A DNA stretch of 64,000 nt, from NCBI RefSeq assembly GCF_056712565.1, contig NZ_CM160072.1; one strand, 5' to 3'. Made by a program: the position numbers and the translations under genes. The notes beneath the pieces were generated by a model that made no database searches, had not been told where the DNA came from, and was given only the letters and a program-made list of their open reading frames with translations. Below, piece after piece: positions 10,598 to 22,145 of this stretch. Numbering within the stretch: position 1 is the first letter of the stretch; each line of letters begins with the position of its first letter.

Positions 10598-11503
10598 CTA
10601 TATTTCCAGACACCTGTTATCACTTAACCCATTACTGGCTTGCTGCCGTAGATATTCCCGTGGCGAGCGATAACCCAGTGCACTATGCGGATGCCATTCG
10701 TTATAATGCTCGAACGCCTCTGCAAGGTTCTTTGCTGCCGTTAACCCGTCTGGTTTGGGCATGACACTGATGTAGTCACGCTTTATCGTTTTCACGAAGC
10801 TCTCTGCTATGCCGTTACTCTCCGGACTCCGCACCGCCGTGCTCTTCGGTTCAAGCCCCAACATCCGGGCAAACTGCCGTGTTTCATTAGCCCGGTAGCA
10901 TGAACCATTATCCGTCAGCCACTCTACTGGAGACGCCGGAAGCTCGTTGCCGAAGCGGCGTTCCACCGCTCCCAGCATGACGTCCTGTACTGTTTCACTG
11001 TTGAAGCCGCCCGTAGTGACCGCCCAGTGCAGTGCCTCACGGTCACAGCAGTCCAGCGCGAACGTGACTCGCAGTTTTTCTCCGTTATCACAGCGGAACT
11101 CGAACCCGTCAGAGCACCATCGCTGATTACTTTCTTTCACAGCCACTCTGCCTGTATGTGCCCGTTTCGATGGCGGTACAGCAGGTTTTCGCTCAAGCAA
11201 CAGCGCATTCTGGCGCATGATCCGGTAAACACGTTTGGCATTGATCGCAGGCATACCATCAAGTTCTGCCTGTCTGCGAAGCAGCGCCCATACCCGACGA
11301 TAACCATACGTGGGCAGCTCTCCGATAACATGGTGTATACGGAGAAGCACATCCGTATCATCAGTGTGACGACTGCGGCGGCCATCCATCCAGTCATCGG
11401 TTCGTCTGAGAATGACGTGCAACTGCGCACGCGACACCCGGAGACAACGGCTGACTAAGCTTACTCCCCATCCCCGGGCAATAAGGGCGCGTGCGCTATC
11501 CAC
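10598..11503 (-). CDS. insD: IS2 transposase InsD (orfB)
   Basis: 301-aa translation ([34 protein letters not shown]...) recognised as IS2 InsD. Confidence 0.85.
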
Positions 11504-11826
11504 TTTTTTGCCCGTCCATATTCAACGGCTTCTTTGAGGAGTTCATTTTCCATCGTTTTCTTGCCGAGCAGGCGCTGGAGTTCTTTAATCTGCTTCATGG
11601 CGGCAGCAAGTTCAGAGGCAGGAACAACCTGTTCTCCGGCGGCGACAGCAGTAAGACTTCCTTCCTGGTATTGCTTACGCCAGAGAAATAACTGGCTGGC
11701 TGCTACACCATGTTGCCGGGCAACGAGGGAGACCGTCATCCCTGGTTCAAAGCTCTGCTGAACAATTGCGATCTTTTCCTGTGTGGTACGCCGTCTGCGT
11801 TTCTCCGGTCCTAAGACATCAATCAT
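11461..11826 (-). CDS. insC: IS2 transposase InsC (orfA)
   Basis: [49 protein letters not shown]... recognised as IS2 InsC (121 aa). Confidence 0.85.
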
Positions 11827-11875
11827 CTGCTCTCCAATGACTAGTCTAAAAACTAGTATTAAGACTATCACTTAA

Positions 11876-12010
11876 ATAAGTGATAGTCCTGATACAAGTT
11901 TTTAGAGTAGTCATTAGTGAACAGATAATTGTTAACTTAGAACCAGTAAAATGCAAACGACGCACCACGCTGGGAAAATCGCTGCTATTCAGCAGAGTTT
12001 TGTACCGAGA
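11876..12010 (+). mobile_element. diverged IS2-like 5' fragment in mirror orientation (head-to-head with the IS2 copy)
   Basis: Sequence from 11876 mirrors the reverse complement of 11830..11875 with a few mismatches, and ORF 11880..12320 begins MIVLIQVFRVVISEQIIVNLEPVKCKRRTT, a diverged echo of the IS2 InsC leader [30 protein letters not shown]. Confidence 0.6.
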
Positions 12011-12548
12011 ATTGTGGCCAGCCACTTATTGCTCTCGCGTAAGCAGGTATCCCCATCGTTTACCAGTCCAGCACATCTTGTGGTCAGACAGAAGAAGAGC
12101 AAACTGTTACTGGACTCACTGCATGCATGGTGGAGAAAAATGCCACGCTATCCAAAAATCCAGACTGGGTGAATGGTTCAGCTGTGTACTGAATCAGTGG
12201 GGCGCACTCTGTTATTACAGTGTTGACGGTCAGGCGGAGGCAGACATAATGCCGCGGAAAAAGCCCTTTGTGCCATCTGTCTCGGAAATAAAAACTCTTA
12301 TGACCTTTGTCAAATATTAAGCCCAAAAAGACCTTACGCAGCTCCGGGAGCTTCGTTATATCGCGGATTAAAGAACCTGAAACAGTCAGACTGTATCTTG
12401 GATTTTACAAACTCTTATTCGGGGATTTTAGCCCCATGACGATTTACGCAGTGAGCTGGCCTCTTTCTACGTGCAGGTATTAGCGCATTCTGGCTTCCCT
12501 GAATTCTTTTACGAGGATCACTCATTCCGTGTCTGACTGCTTCAGGGT

Positions 12549-13682
12549 TTAATTTTGCTTCTGCTGACTGAATGATGATTGGGCAGCAAGTGCAATATCC
12601 CACATAAATCCAGTCAACTCACGAGCCACCGCCGTAATGGCTACTTGTGATTTTTTCCCTTTTGCTGTCAGACTTCGGTAACGAGAACACAATCGTTGTT
12701 GAGCTTTCCATGCAATATCTTTGGAATATTGTGTTACAGAGTCCGGTCGGTAATATATAAGCCATGCCCCAACTTTTGCAGGTGTACGATAAGACCAGGC
12801 GGCTTCGTAAAGCAGACGTCTCAGTTCGCTGTTTCCAACTTTTGTTATTCCTCTGGGACGAATACTGTTTCCACTGGAATATTCACCTGGCACCAGTCCC
12901 AGAAAAGCCATGAGCTGTTTGGGATTGGAAAATCGCGAAAAATCACCCAGTTCAGCAACCAGAGTTATTGCAATTAGCTGACCAACACCTTTAAGAGCCT
13001 GCAACTGGCAGACCAGATTGCACAGAGACCACTCAGGTAACAGGCGAGATATTTCCTGGTCGAGTTGAAGTATGCGATCTTCAATCTGCTCCAGACTTTG
13101 ACAATAGTGTTGAAAAGCAATCTGTTGAGATGGCTGACTAAATGATTGATTAGCTAACCAGGTTCGATGTTTTCCTGTCCAGTGCTTTCCTGCATAATGT
13201 TTGTCTGTTCGCAATAGCATGCTCAGAATTCGCTGTCGGGCAACTCTGCTGTCTCGTTTAGCTGCTGCACGGGCTCTGATTAGATCCCGCATAGCTTCAT
13301 GAGTCAGGTCAGGGATCCAGACAGGGGTAAGTTCTCCAGCCCGCAGTAACCTGGCGAGAGAAATTGCGTCCCGATGATCATTTTTGATTCTGTCTGTCGG
13401 TGATTTTGGTATGCGGGAAGGGGCAATAACCTGGCATTTTATATTCATCGCTGTGAGTTGATGATATAGCCCAAAACCACAGGGGCCAGCCTCATAGCAG
13501 GAAAGAATGTTTCCGTAAAGTCCCTGCAATTTCTGAAATAATCGACGTACAGCCTGGGCTTCGTTGTTAATCGTACCATAATAACGAACTTCGCCAAGCC
13601 GTTCAGGTGCAGCAATAGCAACCGCCAACGTTTCTTTATGCACATCCAGCCCGACGTAAGCCGCAATATTTTCCGAATGCAT
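12549..13682 (-). CDS. IS110-family transposase/recombinase
   Basis: 377 aa, N-terminal AAYVGLDVHKETLAVAI (DEDD RuvC-like fold) and C-terminal domain typical of the IS110 family. Confidence 0.8.
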   Translation of the reverse strand: MHSENIAAYVGLDVHKETLAVAIAAPERLGEVRYYGTINNEAQAVRRLFQKLQGLYGNILSCYEAGPCGFGLYHQLTAMNIKCQVIAPSRIPKSPTDRIKNDHRDAISLARLLRAGELTPVWIPDLTHEAMRDLIRARAAAKRDSRVARQRILSMLLRTDKHYAGKHWTGKHRTWLANQSFSQPSQQIAFQHYCQSLEQIEDRILQLDQEISRLLPEWSLCNLVCQLQALKGVGQLIAITLVAELGDFSRFSNPKQLMAFLGLVPGEYSSGNSIRPRGITKVGNSELRRLLYEAAWSYRTPAKVGAWLIYYRPDSVTQYSKDIAWKAQQRLCSRYRSLTAKGKKSQVAITAVARELTGFMWDIALAAQSSFSQQKQN

Positions 13683-13769
13683 GATGACCTCCTCTGGAAT
13701 ATCCCACCAATGCTATAGTGAGTATATAAAGGTCATATCATCTTTATGTTCTTCGGCGGCGAGCGCAGT

Positions 13770-13949
13770 GCACTGTTGTATGGGCTTATCGGCACTTGCC
13801 TTCTGAACGACATTGATCCGGAAGCGTATCTGCGCCATATCCTGAGCGTACTGCCGGAATAACCTTCCAACCGTATTGATGAACTCCTGCCATGGAACGT
13901 AGTTCTCACCAATAAATAAGCATCAATATGATTCTCCATTAACGCTTAC
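13770..13949 (+). mobile_element. IS66-family right-end remnant (transposase C-terminus with a 1-bp frameshift, plus terminal repeat)
   Basis: Plus-strand translation ALLYGLIGTCLLNDIDPEAYLRHILSVLPE then, after a frameshift, ...RIDELLPWNVVL; ends at a GTAAGCG-type terminus (about 13943..13949 on the complement); near-identical inverted copy at 47718..47878. Confidence 0.55.
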
Positions 13950-14057
13950 CTTTTCTCAGGCTATTTTTGCTTTTTTTTGCTTTTCCCCGCCACTTTATGG
14001 TGATTATCACATCAATATACATCGATAGATATTAACGTAACTGAAATGAGGTGAAGC

Positions 14058-15272
14058 ATGAAATTTGAACGCCATCATGAAATATTGAAACGACTCAGTA
14101 AATTCGGTTCTGTAAAAGTATCCGATCTGTCCAATAGCCTCAATGTAACGAAAGAAACTATTCGATCAGATCTTAATGAACTTGCCAGGCTTGGCTATCT
14201 GACTCGATGTCATGGCGGTGCTTTTATCGTCCTAGACTCGCTTGATACTATTGCGAAAAATGAAATCGCTTATGCGCTTGAAAATTATGATACAGCCCAG
14301 GGAATAAAAAAAGGCCACTCAACTATGAAAAGTCAAGTATGCGTTATTGGTTCGTTTAATGTTGATATCATCAGTTATTTGCCGAGGCTTCCCACTATCG
14401 GAGAATCGCTTCTGGCAAGTAATTTTATATTTTCACCGGGGGGAAAAGGCTGTAACCAAGCGCTGGCAGCAAGCTTTGCCGATACTGATGTTTATTTCAT
14501 AACAAAAGTAGGTACAGATCACTTTAGTGATTATGCGATCAACTTTATGAATTCGTCTAAGATTTATAAAAGTATAATTTATCAAACGAAAGAAACGCAA
14601 ACCGGAACTGCCACGATCCTTGTTAATGAAGGTACTGGCGATAATGTTATTGCGATCTATCCCGGTGCCAACATGACAATGTCGTCCGATGAAATAACTA
14701 TTCAGAAAGAAGCGATTATTAATTCTGATGTCATACTTCTGCAGCTCGAAACAAATTATACCGCTCTGCAACAAGCGATCACATTGGCGCAAAAAAACAG
14801 TATCCCGGTCATTATTAACCCGGCACCCTATAATGATATCGTCAACGAACTTATTCAGGATGTTGATTATATCACCCCCAATGAAACAGAAGCTGGTTTA
14901 CTGTCCGGCATAGACGTACACGATCTTGAATCAGCTAAACGAGCTGCAGAAGCTATCCACAATAAAGGGGTAAAAAACACGGTTATCACGCTCGGTAGCA
15001 AGGGCTCGCTCGCATTTGATGGCAAAAAATTCATTCATTCGCCAGCGTTTCCAGCGGTCGTTAAAAATACGGCAGGAGCCGGGGATGCTTTTAACGGCGC
15101 TCTGGCATCAGGACTTGCGAAAGGAAAATCACTGGAATCAGCACTGTGTTATGCCAGCGCCTTTGCATCCCTAGCGGTGGAGACAAGCAATGCTTCCGAC
15201 ATGCCTGAACATGAATCTGTGATACATCGAATTCAGAGTATACATTATCAGCAAACTATTTTTACGCATTAA
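14058..15272 (+). CDS. fusion protein: DeoR-type HTH regulator domain + ribokinase/PfkB-family sugar kinase
   Basis: N-terminal DeoR HTH (HEILKRLSKFGSVKVSDLSNSLNVTKETIRSDLNEL), then kinase domain with GG dipeptide (SPGGKGCNQA) and anion-hole motif NTAGAGDAFNGAL. Confidence 0.7.
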   Translation: MKFERHHEILKRLSKFGSVKVSDLSNSLNVTKETIRSDLNELARLGYLTRCHGGAFIVLDSLDTIAKNEIAYALENYDTAQGIKKGHSTMKSQVCVIGSFNVDIISYLPRLPTIGESLLASNFIFSPGGKGCNQALAASFADTDVYFITKVGTDHFSDYAINFMNSSKIYKSIIYQTKETQTGTATILVNEGTGDNVIAIYPGANMTMSSDEITIQKEAIINSDVILLQLETNYTALQQAITLAQKNSIPVIINPAPYNDIVNELIQDVDYITPNETEAGLLSGIDVHDLESAKRAAEAIHNKGVKNTVITLGSKGSLAFDGKKFIHSPAFPAVVKNTAGAGDAFNGALASGLAKGKSLESALCYASAFASLAVETSNASDMPEHESVIHRIQSIHYQQTIFTH

Positions 15273-15285
15273 GAAGGGACAGAGA

Positions 15286-16044
15286 ATGAATAACACCAAA
15301 AAATCACTAAAAGTGCTCTTTATTGGGGAATCCTGGCATATTCATATGATTCATTCAAAAGGATATGACAGTTTTACCTCAAGTAAATATGAAGAAGGTG
15401 CGACCTGGTTACTCCAATGTCTGAAAAATAGTCAGGTAGATGTCACCTATATGCCAGCACATACGGTACAAATTGCCTTCCCTGAAGATGTGGCACAGTT
15501 AGAACAATATGATGCCATCGTTATTAGTGATATTGGTAGTAATACTTTCCTGCTACAAAATGATACTTTTTATCAACTTCGCATAAAACCAAACGCTCTC
15601 GAACTGATTAAAGAATATGTGAATAACGGTGGTGGGTTATTGATGATTGGCGGCTATCTCTCATTCATGGGAATTGAAGCAAAAGCCAATTATAAAAATA
15701 CAGTTCTGGCTGATGTGCTCCCGGTTACGATGTTAGATGGTGACGATCGTGTCGAAAAACCAGAGGGTGTTATTGCACAGCCATCACAACCTGAACATCC
15801 AGTTATTAAAGGGTTCTCTGAATATCCTTTTTTCCTAGGTTATAACCGGGCGATCGCTAAAGAAAATGCTGAGGTGGTATTAACAATAAACAACGATCCA
15901 TTACTGGTCTTTGGTAACTATCACAACGGGAAAATAGCCTGCTTTATGAGTGACTGTTCACCGCACTGGGGTACACAGCAGTTTATGTCCTGGCCGTTCT
16001 ATACCGCGTTGTGGGTAAATATACTGACTCATATTGCAAGATAA
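15286..16044 (+). CDS. ThuA-like / class-I glutamine-amidotransferase-like protein (function unknown)
   Basis: 252-aa cytoplasmic protein; fold assignment by weak pattern recall only. Confidence 0.35.
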   Translation: MNNTKKSLKVLFIGESWHIHMIHSKGYDSFTSSKYEEGATWLLQCLKNSQVDVTYMPAHTVQIAFPEDVAQLEQYDAIVISDIGSNTFLLQNDTFYQLRIKPNALELIKEYVNNGGGLLMIGGYLSFMGIEAKANYKNTVLADVLPVTMLDGDDRVEKPEGVIAQPSQPEHPVIKGFSEYPFFLGYNRAIAKENAEVVLTINNDPLLVFGNYHNGKIACFMSDCSPHWGTQQFMSWPFYTALWVNILTHIAR

Positions 16045-16097
16045 TAATAATGGGGTAACTCCAGTTACCCCATTTACTATAATAGAAGGATTGATGT

Positions 16098-17063
16098 ATG
16101 AAAAAGAATAAGTACTCAACTCCCTTATGGATGCTTGCCACGATTCTTGCGGGTATGCTCTCCCCTATGCAATCAGCGGTGAATGGTCAATTAGGTCACT
16201 GGTTACAGGATGGTAATGCATGCGCAGTTATCTCCTTTGCCAGTGGTTTAGTCGTGATGTTTTTTATTATTATGGCGCGAAAAGAAACCCGGCAACAATT
16301 TGCGGCAATTCCTTCTCTGATTAAAAACCGAAAAGTTCCTCTCTGGAACTGGTTTGCCGGTCTCTGTGGAGCGATGGTGGTATTTTCTGAAGGCGCATCA
16401 GCCAGCGCACTCGGGGTCGCAACGTTTCAAACCGCACTGATCTCCGCGCTATTGCTGTCTGGTTTACTTTGCGATCGCTTTGGTATCGGTGTCGACGAGA
16501 AAAAATACTTTACCCCTTATCGCATCATCGGTGCATTATTTGCGGTTATTGCTACGATTTTTGTTGTGTCACCGCAGTGGCATTCTACCTCTTTCATCTT
16601 ACTTGCCATTCTTCCGTTCTTAGCTGGTTTGCTTGCAGGATGGCAGCCCGCTGGAAATGCAAAAGTAGCTGAAGCTACGGGATCCATGCTGGTTTCAATC
16701 ACCTGGAATTTCATCGTTGGATTTTGTGTTTTAGGCACAGCGCTAGCTATTCGTGTCGCATTAGGGCACGTCACTGTTCAATTACCAGATGTCTGGTGGA
16801 TGTATCTTGGCGGCCCGCTTGGACTAATGTCTATCGGTTTAATGGCCATTTTGGTCAGAGGTCTGGGGTTACTGATGCTGGGGGTTGCTTCAACGGCGGG
16901 CCAGTTACTGGGATCAGTATTGATTGACGTATTAATTCCATCGCTGGGCAATACCGTTTATCTGGTCACGATCATCGGAACACTGTTTGCACTGGTCGGT
17001 GCAATTGTTACCACTATTCCGGAATACAGAACCTCGAAAACAATGAAGAAAATGGAGGTATAA
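16098..17063 (+). CDS. polytopic inner-membrane transporter (DMT-like)
   Basis: 321 aa, about 10 hydrophobic helices, RBS-spaced 50 bp after the preceding gene. Confidence 0.5.
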   Translation: MKKNKYSTPLWMLATILAGMLSPMQSAVNGQLGHWLQDGNACAVISFASGLVVMFFIIMARKETRQQFAAIPSLIKNRKVPLWNWFAGLCGAMVVFSEGASASALGVATFQTALISALLLSGLLCDRFGIGVDEKKYFTPYRIIGALFAVIATIFVVSPQWHSTSFILLAILPFLAGLLAGWQPAGNAKVAEATGSMLVSITWNFIVGFCVLGTALAIRVALGHVTVQLPDVWWMYLGGPLGLMSIGLMAILVRGLGLLMLGVASTAGQLLGSVLIDVLIPSLGNTVYLVTIIGTLFALVGAIVTTIPEYRTSKTMKKMEV

Positions 17064-17065
17064 TC

Positions 17066-18100
17066 ATGAAAGATTATCTACAAACTGTGACGGGCCCCGT
17101 CGCCCGTGAAGATATGGGGCTAACACTTCCTCATGAACATCTGTTCAACGATCTTTCCTCTGTTGTGGATGCTCCTTGCTATCCTTTTTCACAACGGCTT
17201 GTTGATAAAAAAGTCACGGCAGAAATCCAGTGGGCATTAAAACACGATCCTTATTGCTGCGCTGATAATATGGACCGCAAACCTATTGAAGATGTGATCT
17301 TCGAAATTAATAACTTTATCTCGCTCGGTGGTCGCACCATTGTTGATGCCACAGGGTCTGAGTCTATCGGACGAGATGCGCAGGCATTACGAGAAGTCGC
17401 ATTAAAAACAGGTCTGAATATTGTTGCTTCCTCCGGTCCCTACCTGGAAAAATTTGAAAGCCAGAGAATTCATAAAACGGTTGATGAACTGGCGGCAACG
17501 ATCGATAAAGAATTGAATCAAGGGATTGGCGATACGGATATTCGTGCCGGAATGATCGGTGAAATAGGTGTCTCACCGACATTTACCGAAGCCGAGCATA
17601 ACAGCTTGCGGGCTGCCTCGCTGGCACAGATTAACAATCCTCATGTGGCGATGAATATTCACATGCCGGGCTGGCTTCGTCGCGGTGATGAAGTACTCGA
17701 CATTGTGTTAGGTGAAATGGGCGTCTCGCCAAATAAAGTCTCTCTCGCACACTCGGATCCGTCAGGAAAAGACGTGGCGTATCAGCGGAAAATGCTTGAT
17801 AAGGGTGTCTGGCTGGAATTCGACATGATTGGCCTAGACATTACCTTCCCGAAAGAGGGAATAGCGCCAGGGGTGCAGGAGACTGCCGATGCCGTCGCTC
17901 ATCTCATTGAGTTGGGATACGCCGATCAGCTTGTTCTCAGCCACGATGTCTTCCTTAAACAAATGTGGGCTAAAAATGGCGGTAATGGCTGGGGATTTGT
18001 TCCAGATGTTTTTCTGGCCTATCTGGCGGAGCGCGGCGTCGATAAAACGATCCTCAAAAAACTCTGTATCGATAATCCCGGACGATTATTGACCGCATAA
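17066..18100 (+). CDS. phosphotriesterase-family (PTER/Php-like) metal-dependent hydrolase
   Basis: N-terminal GLTLPHEHLFNDLS motif (metal-binding HxH of the phosphotriesterase/amidohydrolase family) and length about 344 aa. Confidence 0.7.
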   Translation: MKDYLQTVTGPVAREDMGLTLPHEHLFNDLSSVVDAPCYPFSQRLVDKKVTAEIQWALKHDPYCCADNMDRKPIEDVIFEINNFISLGGRTIVDATGSESIGRDAQALREVALKTGLNIVASSGPYLEKFESQRIHKTVDELAATIDKELNQGIGDTDIRAGMIGEIGVSPTFTEAEHNSLRAASLAQINNPHVAMNIHMPGWLRRGDEVLDIVLGEMGVSPNKVSLAHSDPSGKDVAYQRKMLDKGVWLEFDMIGLDITFPKEGIAPGVQETADAVAHLIELGYADQLVLSHDVFLKQMWAKNGGNGWGFVPDVFLAYLAERGVDKTILKKLCIDNPGRLLTA

Positions 18101-18106
18101 AACCAT

Positions 18107-18135
18107 TATCCCCCGGCACACTGCGCCGGGGGATG
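18107..18135. terminator. GC-rich hairpin (ccccggcacactgcgccgggg) between convergent units
   Basis: Inverted repeat read in sequence directly after the phosphotriesterase stop codon. Confidence 0.45.
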
Positions 18136-18140
18136 TCAAT

Positions 18141-18300
18141 TAATACCCCGCCGTTAAATCATCCACCAAGCGCGAGTCGGATGCGCCGTACAACTCACCA
18201 TCCGACCCAACCATAATGCTTTGCGTGCTGCCCATCGCCTCATTCAGCGCCACTTTCTGACCTTTTGCTTCCAGCAGCTTGAGCGTATCCGGACTAAACC
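18141..18300 (-). pseudogene. gamma-glutamyltransferase C-terminal fragment (about 53 codons)
   Basis: Reverse-complement translation ...KGQKVALNEAMGSTQSIMVGSDGELYGASDSRLVDDLTAGY* matches the conserved GGT C-terminus; the upstream part of the gene is absent. Confidence 0.6.
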
Positions 18301-18751
18301 CTTTTCAACACGCAGCTAGTCCGGCAACCACTGATGGTGGAAACGAGGCGCATTGGTCGCTTCGGCAACATTCATTCCACAATTGATGCTGTTCACCACC
18401 ATTTGCAGCACGGTAGTGATGATTCAGCTACCGGTAACAAAGTGAGTACATAAAGGCCATACTGTCACGAACAGTGCAAAAGTGGCTCTTCCGCAACCTA
18501 GGTGAAGATTTTCATGCCAGTGGACTCATTACCCTCCGCCTAAGTAGTTCAAATCCGGCTCGACCATACATCTGGCGTATCAGCACCTTCAGGCGATTTA
18601 CATGACCTTCGACAACACCATTACTCCAGCGACTGCTGATTGCCTCACATATAGCCGCAGCATCAGCTTCCATCCCCGCAGCTACGCACCGAAGTTCTGC
18701 TGAGCCGCTTTCGTGAACTCGAGTGAACCAGCTGCTTAGCTGTGATTTATT

Positions 18752-20414: not shown

Positions 20415-20825
20415 TCAGTTCCTATCCTTCCAGTTGCCTTCCTGCAGCCCCCCCTCCCTGCTGTATACCCCGGTACCACAACGCGGGCAGCACTTTTCTC
20501 CTTCATAATCTTCGTCACACATCACACAAAACCACTTTCTCACCTTCACCGTATAATCCGGAACCGTCATACCCTGCAGATGCAAACGACGGGCCTCTTT
20601 CTCTGCCGGGTCAAGCCAGGTGCATCGCAGCAGGATTTTCTCAGCGACAGTCATCTGGTCATGTTCAAACCACGGTGGTTGTCCGTCATTGCCCCGCTGA
20701 AGTGTTAACGGGCATCCACAGGACACACAGCACAAAACGTCCTGGCGGTTGTGCTTCGCTGCTTCTTTCGCCGTAACAAAATGGCCTTTGCTGTCATTCG
20801 CCATATAACAGTTCAGAATTCGCAT
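20415..20825 (-). CDS. Cys-rich zinc-ribbon protein (paralog 2 of a tandem pair)
   Basis: AGGAGG 4 nt upstream of ATG at 20825; shares the pattern C-x2-C ... PWFEH ... C-x2-C with the upstream gene. Confidence 0.5.
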   Translation of the reverse strand: MRILNCYMANDSKGHFVTAKEAAKHNRQDVLCCVSCGCPLTLQRGNDGQPPWFEHDQMTVAEKILLRCTWLDPAEKEARRLHLQGMTVPDYTVKVRKWFCVMCDEDYEGEKCCPRCGTGVYSREGGLQEGNWKDRN

Positions 20826-21214
20826 ATTTCCTCCTGAGTTGTCCGGGGAATACTGAATCCTCCGGTCTGGCAGTGTGTGCAGTACCGCTCCCCATAATAA
20901 TCGTGGTGACATTGTCTGCAGTGCCAGCTGGCTTTACGCACCACGGGTAAGGCATCCGGTACGAATTGCTGCAGACGTTTAATCAACTGTATTTCTCTGC
21001 GCTCCGGCCTGACATAAGGGCACTGTTGACCGTGCTCTGTCAGCCTGTCGTCAGTGTGTTCAAACCAGGGAAGTTCAGTGTCGTATTGCGGATGGTATCT
21101 GAGTGCACTGCCACACAAGTGGCAGGTGTAGTGAGCATAAGGTGCGGCCTGTACAGTACGGGCGCCCGTCAGACGTCCGTTGCTATCAAGAGCGAGAAAG
21201 GATTTTGCGTACAT
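20813..21214 (-). CDS. Cys-rich zinc-ribbon protein (paralog 1 of a tandem pair)
   Basis: 133 aa, CHLCGSALRYHPQYDTELPWFEH ... CRQCHHDYYGERYCTHCQTG; stop overlaps the start of the next gene. Confidence 0.5.
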   Translation of the reverse strand: MYAKSFLALDSNGRLTGARTVQAAPYAHYTCHLCGSALRYHPQYDTELPWFEHTDDRLTEHGQQCPYVRPERREIQLIKRLQQFVPDALPVVRKASWHCRQCHHDYYGERYCTHCQTGGFSIPRTTQEEICEF

Positions 21215-21379
21215 AGTATATGTTCCTTACCGTCAGACGACACGCAGGCAACAGCCGTCCCGGTACGGGCAGCGTGGTCAGGTGTGAATGGCGGTTTCAG
21301 TTCAGTCTCATAAGGGAAAATCAGTGTGGTGGCCATGAACACGTCATCACACTGAAGTCAGATAACTCGTCTGTCTGGC

Positions 21380-21949
21380 TCAGCCACGACTGCAGCCAAA
21401 GTTGCGCTCACCGGTGCAGTGAGCTTTGGTATGCTCCTTCGCCAGATAGTCAGCACGTTCCAGCACTTGCTGAAAGCCGGTGTCATCATTACGCGCCAGC
21501 CACACCGCCGGCCAGGCCGGAAAATGCACCAGCGTGGCATGGCATCCGGCATCCACCCCCAGGGCACTGCACCAGGCCTGTTCAATCATTCCGGCCAGTG
21601 ATCCCGGAGCGCGGTAATCACCGGCACGACACCAGGTATCCCGGTTGACCAGCAGCATCAGATGATAGTGTTTTTTACCTTTGCACTCCCCAAACTCCCG
21701 GGCCCAGACGTAATGCAGAGTGGTGGGATGCACGCGTTTACCTTCCCGATGCTTACGTTTCTGGTAAGCGTCGATTCGGGCTTTCAGGGCATTGATGAAG
21801 CGGGATATCACAGCTGCGTCCGTTGCTGCCGGTACATCCGGGAAACGCAGGTCAACCCGCAATGCCGTCAGGCGGGGATGAACATTCAGTGCGTGCCGCA
21901 CTGTCTCACGAATACGTTGCTGCCAGAAGGGGTTGTATTTGTAGGTCAT
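21380..21949 (-). CDS. YagK/YfjJ-family (inovirus Gp2-like) prophage protein; alternative GTG start at 21985
   Basis: MTYKYNPFWQQRIRETV... recalled as the N-terminus of the cryptic-prophage YagK/YfjJ family; GGAG 8 nt upstream of ATG at 21949. Confidence 0.5.
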   Translation of the reverse strand: MTYKYNPFWQQRIRETVRHALNVHPRLTALRVDLRFPDVPAATDAAVISRFINALKARIDAYQKRKHREGKRVHPTTLHYVWAREFGECKGKKHYHLMLLVNRDTWCRAGDYRAPGSLAGMIEQAWCSALGVDAGCHATLVHFPAWPAVWLARNDDTGFQQVLERADYLAKEHTKAHCTGERNFGCSRG

Positions 21950-22145
21950 GGTTAAATCTCCGTATGGTTCATACGGAATAGCCACGTCGTAAAAAATGCG
22001 CAGAGTCCCTGAAGTGACCTCCGGCAGGGCACTGTCTCAGGCACTCTGTGATAACCCGAACGGTCGTCTCCGGACTGACGGTTGAATTTTCAGCGTTGTT
22101 TTTTTAATGTAAAAAACCGGTTACGGGTAAGGCTGTGAGGAGGGA

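Follow-up and report, generated by a model that had tools for sequence, protein, structure and literature searches.

At positions 14058-18100 of a 64,000-nucleotide stretch of Escherichia coli DNA (contig NZ_CM160072.1 of NCBI RefSeq assembly GCF_056712565.1; the whole stretch is referred to here as the window), four genes, designated g1 to g4, lie on one strand (Table 1). An original prediction made from the letters of this DNA described a co-oriented four-gene cluster with tight, operon-like spacing. That description is accurate: all of the open reading frames are present, a Shine-Dalgarno-like sequence lies 5' of each, and the gaps between g1 and g2, g2 and g3, and g3 and g4 are 13, 53, and 2 nucleotides (nt). 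The locus is the E. coli ortholog of rikA/STM3547-STM3548-STM3549-STM3550 of Salmonella, a cluster that is already known. STM3547 is the ribose kinase RikA of Salmonella Typhimurium, and STM3547-STM3550 is conserved in Citrobacter, Escherichia, Budvicia, and Proteus, with pathway function unassigned there (McCormick, Jabbar & Escalante-Semerena, Mol Microbiol 2026, PMC13432705). The original prediction allowed that the cluster might be a known, characterized operon, which is only partly the case: there is a published locus, with RikA, structures for the g2 and g4 orthologs, and the pathogenicity island PAI-CFT073-cobU, but the pathway of the operon is itself uncharacterized.

Table 1. Positions of the genes and other features of the cluster in the window.
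Feature	Position	Strand	Description
Tandem direct repeat, TTTTTGCTTT x2	13964-13983	+	20 nt, T-rich; from direct-repeat search; candidate operator or UP-like promoter element
Element TTTATGG-GTGATTATCACA	13994-14011	+	~10 nt beyond the repeat; candidate operator half-sites and/or core promoter
Shine-Dalgarno GAGGTG	14048-14053	+	4 nt 5' of g1 Met1; read from the sequence
g1	14058-15272	+	404 aa, ATG-initiated; HTH_DeoR::PfkB fusion
Internal ATG, Met90 of g1	14325-14327	+	Linker/kinase junction; candidate second translation start
g2	15286-16044	+	252 aa, ATG-initiated; GATase1_like PF07090, cytoplasmic
GC-rich stem-loop	16049-16074	+	g2-g3 spacer; hairpin of 11 pairs
g3	16098-17063	+	321 aa, ATG-initiated; two-repeat DMT/YdcZ transporter
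g4	17066-18100	+	344 aa, ATG-initiated; phosphotriesterase (PTE)-family binuclear-metal hydrolase
GC hairpin, strong	18108-18134	.	Between convergent g4 and ggt fragment; 12 pairs, 9 G-C
ggt 3' fragment (gamma-glutamyltransferase pseudogene)	18139-18433	-	Annotated frameshifted ggt fragment in CFT073

A genome-neighbourhood comparison, of the kind that the original prediction had proposed, found all four genes, their order unchanged, in Salmonella enterica, S. bongori, Citrobacter, Budvicia, and a Proteus-like genome (L086). Identities to g1, g2, g3, and g4 of the window are 80, 81, 93, and 87% for Salmonella; 65, 73, 86, and 77% for Citrobacter; 64, 71, 87, and 78% for Budvicia; and 63, 73, 84, and 74% for the Proteus-like genome. 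The flanking genes differ in the Citrobacter, Budvicia, and Proteus-like loci, and the same four genes in the same order across these genomes is not a chance arrangement. The window shares with the rikA-STM3550 locus four orthologs in the order kinase fusion, GATase1_like protein, DMT transporter, PTE-family hydrolase, and a common upstream element; strand and spacing are the same in Salmonella, and both g1 proteins are 404 residues long with Met90 and the catalytic D343. A profile search of genome contigs with the g1 alignment was swamped by the ribokinase motifs GGKG[CA]NQA and GAGDAFNG, so that most of its matches were ordinary ribokinases and none came from Salmonella or Proteus. The Salmonella- and Proteus-type contexts were recovered by exact-protein look-ups, and the 80 ribokinase loci served as a background set. 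The g1 alleles of two S. enterica loci (L082 and L092) differ from each other (dN, nonsynonymous divergence, ~0.1; dS, synonymous divergence, saturated) as much as each differs from the E. coli allele, and the L092 allele is much nearer to that of S. bongori (dS 0.4-0.7), which suggests recombination here or long-separated allelic lineages.

The first gene had been predicted to fuse a DeoR-type helix-turn-helix (HTH) domain to a ribokinase-family kinase, and hidden Markov model domain annotation agrees. Pfam places HTH_DeoR (PF08220, E 5e-15) at residues 5-56 (14070-14225) and PfkB (PF00294, E 5e-65) at residues 92-382 (14331-15203) of the same uninterrupted frame. The possibility that the fusion is a frameshift artefact made of two separate open reading frames was examined and ruled out: the frame runs without a break, is the same in many genomes, and has equal length in all orthologs. 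The sugar-binding motif GGKGCNQA (residues 128-135) and the motif NTAGAGDAF containing D343 are invariant in 19 homologs and place the protein in the PfkB family. The ribose contacts of RbsK, as reportedly described by Sigrell et al. in 1998, are N14, D16, G41, G42, K43, N46, A98, I100, I110, E143, I251, and D255. When g1 is aligned with 1GQT, these contacts are conserved as N101, D103, G128, G129, K130, N133, A185, I187, I198, E231, and D343, and the sole differing position is I251, which is A339 in g1. Against the TIGR02152 ribokinase model g1 scores 285.4 bits and does not reach the cutoff of 299.65, which stand-alone ribokinases in loci L028 and L066 exceed with 337 and 318 bits; g1 is therefore ribokinase-like and not a canonical RbsK equivalog. 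The ATP-dependent Salmonella ortholog RikA has a Km for ribose of 2.0 mM and a kcat of 337 per min, its D343 is essential, and a chromosomal copy of rikA alone supports growth on ribose (PMC13432705). The cluster resembles the classical rbs operon, with its RbsK and separate LacI-type RbsR, in having a ribokinase-type kinase with conserved ribose contacts, a dedicated transporter, and a predicted sugar-responsive repressor function. It differs in that a DeoR-type HTH is fused to the kinase and there is no separate LacI protein, and in that RbsD and RbsACB are absent and two extra hydrolase-like enzymes are present.

The HTH domain of g1 has AgaR as its best NCBIfam match (E 3e-11) and carries the R-x-HGGA wing motif. 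In an AlphaFold2 model, residues 2-56 form a winged HTH of H-E-H-H-wing topology with a predicted local distance difference test score (pLDDT) of 77-91; beyond it come a linker helix of low confidence, a disordered segment at residues 77-89 (pLDDT <50), and a kinase domain with pLDDT >90. Nearly all of the listed full-length (~400-aa) homologs, down to 46% identity, have the HTH_DeoR plus PfkB architecture, and R5, I9, V21, V30, E33, T34, R36, D38, L39, L42, R50, G53, G54, and A55 of the HTH are invariant in a 19-sequence alignment. Nei-Gojobori dN/dS for codons 1-57 is 0.08-0.28 among orthologs, and in the one unsaturated pair (dS 0.38) the HTH, linker, and kinase have values of 0.12, 0.16, and 0.04, respectively; judged by these ratios, the HTH codons are under purifying selection. 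A GAGGT-type Shine-Dalgarno sequence precedes Met1 in 5/5 orthologs compared. Like the DeoR-family repressors DeoR, GlpR, AgaR, and FruR, g1 has an N-terminal HTH_DeoR and a T-rich, repeated candidate operator, but in place of the C-terminal effector/oligomerization domain of that family (DeoRC, for which g1 has no Pfam match) it has a catalytically competent PfkB kinase. One-component regulators derived from enzymes include the ROK-family proteins NagC and Mlc, BirA, and NadR, and YeiI of E. coli is an HTH plus PfkB protein. They resemble g1 in concept, a DNA-binding domain being joined to a metabolite-sensing sugar-kinase or other enzyme fold, and differ from it in their HTH types and kinase folds and in the absence of whole-length homology; the match of g1 to YeiI is confined to the kinase part (PRK09954).

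Upstream of g1, the T-rich tandem repeat is nearly invariant in 7 orthologous upstream regions in which other positions have diverged, its common form being TTTTGCTTTTTTTTGCTTTT, and it marks the point at which colinear homology with Salmonella starts. The pattern TGYTTTTTTTTGSTTT occurs once per locus in 8/8 four-gene loci, always 5' of g1, and in 0/84 other loci examined; within the 64-kb window it has a single exact match. The element just beyond the repeat includes the palindrome GTGATtATCAC (14000-14010), and its ATCACA is invariant in 7/7 orthologs. Almost nothing else is common to the upstream regions of the 7 orthologs beyond the repeat and TTTATGG...ATCACA. Paralogous HTH::PfkB genes (in L084, L088, L002, and L093) have a related TGA..ATCAC at the same relative position, and there too T-rich TTTTGxTTT repeats come before it. 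The conserved upstream elements would fit an autoregulatory site for the fused HTH of g1.

What do the partners of the kinase do? The second gene had been called ThuA-like, and this is right for the fold and wrong for the family: the only Pfam match of g2 is PF07090 GATase1_like (E 2e-112), which puts it outside Pfam ThuA (PF06283) by sequence, whereas its three-dimensional fold is ThuA-like. It matches the structure of STM3548 (PDB 2GK3) with E 5e-146. At the expected nucleophile elbow, the strand-turn of g2 reads LLMIGGYLSF, without a cysteine, and the invariant cysteines are C219 and C224, in ACFMSDCSPHWG. A role as a glutamine amidotransferase was not adopted, given that the expected elbow has no cysteine. 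The polytopic transporter and the PTE-family hydrolase that had been predicted are borne out by g3 and g4. The g4 protein, an ortholog of STM3550 and Pmi1525, matches PF02126 (PTE, E 2e-46), and H23, H25, E166, H199, H229, and D294, which we take from knowledge of the PTE family to be metal ligands, are invariant in 7 orthologs, as expected of a PTE-family member. Pmi1525 of Proteus mirabilis (PDB 3RHG/4QSF) aligns with g4 from end to end (E 4e-174) and has the same presumed metal ligands; the homolog in the Proteus-like locus L086, to which g4 is 73% identical, lies in the same four-gene context. PMC5341072 describes Pmi1525 as a metal-stimulated PTE-family esterase, citing Xiang et al. (Biochemistry 2015). 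Assignment of g4 as a phospho-furanose lactonase or an organophosphate hydrolase was rejected, its scores being far under the cutoffs.

The g3 protein, an ortholog of STM3549, contains PF04657 DMT_YdcZ twice (residues 10-154 and 169-303) and multiple hydrophobic segments, as expected of a YdcZ-type DMT protein and a polytopic inner-membrane transporter, and its gene is the most conserved of the four. A GC stem-loop of differing sequence is found in the g2-g3 spacer of 7/7 orthologs (for example, L082 9993-10045, L089 8993-9058, and L086 9986-10116), its stems being GGGGTAAC/GTTACCCC, GGAGTAAC/GTTACTCC, GCGCGGAG/CTCTGCGC, and others. Structure kept without sequence suggests an intra-operon attenuator or RNA-stability element, and in the window the stem-loop may be a partial terminator or may attenuate or stabilize the transcript. 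Rfam gave no riboswitch or known RNA in 13600-18700.

Paralogous modules help to narrow the substrate class. One lies in Salmonella pathogenicity island 2 (SPI-2) beside ttrRSBCA, 3' of ttrA (L093, 5763-10055), and consists of orf408, an HTH_DeoR::PfkB fusion with 47% identity to g1, and, immediately after it, the GATase1_like orf245 (PDB 3SOZ), then a hydrolase and a transporter. These genes, orf408-orf245-orf32-orf48, are presumably STM1382 to STM1379. The set of functions is that of the cluster, but the hydrolase is of the alpha/beta type and not a PTE, the transporter is an amino-acid (APC) permease and not a DMT protein, and the upstream element is loosely similar (GTGA..TCAC). By transposon sequencing, orf245 and orf408 are among the genes needed at pH 3 (PMC8653844). 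On a Salmonella contig with ccdAB, a resolvase gene, and kfrA (L084, 8001-14123), which looks like a plasmid or other mobile element, a fusion 60% identical to g1 heads an operon with genes for an IU-nucleoside hydrolase, a NupC-type nucleoside transporter, an MFS transporter, and an M20 peptidase, and in S. bongori a fusion 47% identical to g1 heads an ABC transporter and an ADP-ribosylglycohydrolase-family gene. Either arrangement would set ribose free. Brevibacillus and Neobacillus have an operon encoding a LacI/RbsR-like repressor, a bona fide ribokinase, a GATase1_like protein (67 and 66% identical to g2, respectively), an M20 deacylase, and an RbsBAC-like transporter, and these Bacillales operons resemble the cluster in combining a ribokinase-type kinase, GATase1_like protein, hydrolase, transporter, and repressor function. 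GATase1_like and ribokinase genes are also linked with amidohydrolase genes in a proteobacterial metagenome-assembled genome, and in a Paenibacillus variant the M20/GATase1_like/ABC genes occur with no kinase close by. From the recurring modules, the conserved core is a ribokinase-type kinase plus a GATase1_like protein, g2 being the most faithful partner of the kinase across loci, and the hydrolase (PTE, alpha/beta, or M20) and the transporter (DMT, APC, or Rbs-like ABC) are interchangeable. From this core pair and its variable partners, we infer that the substrate class is probably a ribose-type sugar with a hydrolysable acyl, ester, or amide substituent.

Taken as a whole, we judge it moderately probable that the E. 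coli rikA ortholog locus is an acquired small catabolic operon for a conjugated ribose-type sugar, autoregulated by g1. The sugar would arrive conjugated, probably through an acyl or ester substituent, and would be taken up by the DMT transporter g3. The PTE-family hydrolase g4 and the GATase1_like protein g2 would then strip the substituent or substituents, and the PfkB domain of g1 would phosphorylate the freed ribose, an activity shown for the Salmonella ortholog. Full-length g1 would also be the operon regulator, its DeoR-type HTH predicted to bind the T-rich tandem repeat and the ATCACA element, with the dimeric kinase domain serving as sugar sensor in place of the usual DeoR effector domain. 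The internal Met90 probably yields a second, kinase-only isoform.

Several observations weigh against this reading, some of them general and others in favor of a rival explanation. The substrates known for Pmi1525 are reportedly artificial activated esters, and the cellular role of g4 is not defined by that protein; the role of g2 in the pathway is a prediction; and a Rahnella paralog of g1 lies beside DHDPS, DUF386, and MFS genes, which are not suggestive of ribose. DNA binding by g1 or any family member is a prediction, and the conserved upstream motif could be promoter architecture (a UP element) instead of an operator. A consensus sigma-70 scan gave fewer promoter-like sites than shuffled sequence did, with none at the conserved upstream element. 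The autoregulatory part of the proposal would fall away if the real g1 product started at Met90, with the 89 codons before it a vestigial or mis-annotated leader and the cluster regulated otherwise or constitutive, an alternative that we consider unlikely. It draws on published protein data: from native Salmonella translation signals, a C-terminally tagged protein of ~35 kDa, identified as RikA, was the only product recovered, a size that fits an M90 start, and RikA(90-404) has full activity and supports growth on ribose (PMC13432705). Moreover, Met is present at column 90 in 81-82 of the 96 full-length homologs (~84%) while the adjoining linker columns are variable, it lines up with the Met at which ordinary ribokinases start, and the linker just 5' of it is predicted to be disordered. 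Yet dN/dS over codons 1-89 is 0.08-0.3 and not ~1, an open frame and an intact HTH are kept in 96 full-length homologs, down to 46% identity, and the strong, conserved Shine-Dalgarno sequence at Met1 contrasts with a weak, badly spaced AAGG ~10 nt 5' of Met90. The Proteus-like ortholog and the Providencia and Hafnia homologs have no Met at position 90 and still keep the HTH, and the same gel result would be expected if the regulator were scarce or the disordered linker were cleaved. We argue from these evolutionary signals that codons 1-89 are probably translated and the HTH functional, despite the published M90 result. The simplest reconciliation would be that g1 gives two products, a full-length regulator-kinase in small amounts and a kinase-only form in abundance, arising from internal initiation or linker cleavage. 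The earlier suggestion that phosphorylation and regulation may be coupled in one polypeptide is thus contested: the conservation argues for a translated, functional HTH, and the recovery of only a 35-kDa Met90 product in Salmonella counts against it. Automated annotation is already divided over the start codon of g1, and the gene call P0008 (315 aa, 825 member sequences), found in many short-read assemblies, corresponds exactly to residues 90-404, probably as an effect of contig ends or gene-caller choice.

The order of the steps could also be the reverse of the one proposed, with the kinase acting on an imported pentonolactone or ribose-like sugar, the PTE-family protein hydrolyzing the phospho-intermediate, and ribose being a side activity. 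The PTE family includes lactonases that act on phosphorylated sugar lactones, and g4 has a weak NCBIfam match to phospho-furanose lactonase (E 4e-11); however, at 42.7 bits the match falls far short of the cutoff of 630, and the sugar lactone or phosphoester suggested as substrate by the original prediction has found no specific support. RikA has a kcat/Km for ribose ~50-fold under that of RbsK, so ribose may be a side substrate, and the modest efficiency and the authors' own suggestion of 'moonlighting' favor a kinase with another substrate (PMC13432705). Set against this, all of the RbsK ribose contacts bar one are kept in g1, the closest characterized relatives of g4, Pmi1525 and Rsp3690, are reported as carboxyl/phosphonate esterases (PMC5341072), and the paralogous modules replace the PTE with alpha/beta or M20 hydrolases, not with lactonases. 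A phosphorylation-first pathway is, in our view, quite improbable. It is also conceivable that the four genes are not one pathway and that g1-g2 (for instance, a ribose-salvage kinase pair) and g3-g4 (for instance, an esterase/efflux detoxification pair) merely travel together. YdcZ proteins are labeled putative exporters in Pfam, the conserved GC hairpin of the g2-g3 spacer has a promoter-like match adjoining it, and BioCyc predicts two operons for the Salmonella locus; the hairpin and the BioCyc prediction leave room for g3-g4 as a separate unit. This is hard to square with the retention of all four genes in one order and on one strand in at least five genera whose flanks are unrelated, and with the recurrence of kinase, GATase1_like, hydrolase, and transporter modules whose hydrolases and transporters are non-homologous, which implies functional coupling; we therefore regard mere co-travel as very improbable.

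The cluster had been thought to be acquired, and its horizontal origin is borne out. In Salmonella, a yhhY-like acetyltransferase gene is followed by the cluster, a convergent, intact ggt, and then yhhA and ugpQ, and ggt is convergent with STM3550 at a spacing equal to that between g4 and the ggt fragment of the window. Positions 13963-18433 are colinear with the Salmonella locus at 76-77% nucleotide identity, and the alignment stops within ggt, where an ISL3 remnant starts. The ggt stub shares ~92% identity with native E. coli ggt, compared with 81-85% for Salmonella ggt. This downstream fragment mirrors the Salmonella gene order and suggests that the block moved from a ggt-adjacent site; we infer that it was probably cut out of an Escherichia-like genome arranged as in Salmonella and placed in the cobU island, bringing its own promoter region and the ggt stub with it. 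The E. coli copy thus differs from the Salmonella locus in lying away from ggt, its convergent neighbor surviving as a fragment among insertion sequence (IS) remnants. In E. coli CFT073 the equivalent genes are C_RS11805-C_RS11820 at 2331944-2335986, within the 2322324..2365760 span of PAI-CFT073-cobU (PMC7545054), and the cluster is therefore inside this island. The cluster DNA is 100% identical in CFT073, Nissle 1917, ABU83972, and ATCC 25922, and at least 80% of it is present in 1907 of 5426 complete E. coli genomes. The ggt-fragment/ISL3 junction (18101-18520) reaches at least 80% coverage in 2527 complete E. coli genomes, compared with 1907 for the four-gene query, and several hundred genomes may keep the ggt/ISL3 scar without an intact or contiguous cluster.

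The GC content is 39-47% over most of the cluster and ~45-56% in the flanks. The IS110 and IS66 debris and the ggt fragment that had been noted around the cluster are all present: IS2, the IS110-like ISEc45, and an IS66 fragment lie upstream, and the ggt pseudogene fragment and then an ISL3 pseudogene lie downstream. The strong hairpin between g4 and the ggt fragment, scored on the - strand only in a terminator scan, is likely a terminator. The IS2 copy occupies 10598-11871 on the - strand. Next to it, at 11880-12330, the start of IS2 orfA is repeated on the opposite strand in partial, degenerate form; the open reading frame at 11880-12320 begins MIVLIQVFRVVISEQ, which differs from the orfA start in the IS2 copy, and the duplication indicates nested or rearranged IS debris. 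Beyond the ISL3 remnant, the - strand at 20415-21985 encodes an 'inovirus Gp2 family' protein of the YagK/YfjJ type together with a pair of small zinc-ribbon proteins. Immediately 3' of the cluster in Citrobacter (L089, 12604-13499) there are genes for a YagK_YfjJ_C protein and an AlpA-type protein.

The cluster is the ortholog of a published locus and not a discovery. What this analysis adds is the purifying selection on the HTH and the conserved Shine-Dalgarno sequence, the upstream element, the conservation of Met90, and the recurring pair of kinase and GATase1_like protein. The locus lies in a pathogenicity island of uropathogenic E. coli (UPEC) and is present in about a third of complete E. 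coli genomes. In a systemic-infection screen in mouse bacteraemia, a CFT073 transposon mutant of c2492, annotated as a 'putative carbohydrate/ribose kinase', is sixth in the table of reduced fitness and so among the mutants with the strongest fitness defects (PMC3855560). From its annotation and its closeness to cobS (c2478), c2492 is most probably g1, the old tags of the cluster running from c2492 onward; a search on c2493-c2495 found nothing relevant. A bolder form of our proposal, which we hold to be rather unlikely, is that one frame makes two proteins, an autorepressor, in which an active ribokinase stands in for the DeoR effector domain and its substrate binding or catalysis is sensed at the promoter, and a free kinase from Met90, with the GATase1_like protein (60-66% identical between Enterobacterales and Bacillales) freeing ribose from a host or diet conjugate. 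If this were true, the GATase1_like protein would be an undescribed enzyme acting on a ribosyl or acyl-ribose conjugate, which would explain the bacteraemia fitness defect of c2492 mutants. The comparative data give testable handles on the operon: a candidate operator, the prediction of a functional HTH, possibly two isoforms, and a core pair that narrows the substrate class. The remaining interest of the locus is in its substrate, in the published protein data set against the evolutionary signal from the HTH, and in its link to the fitness of UPEC in the bloodstream.

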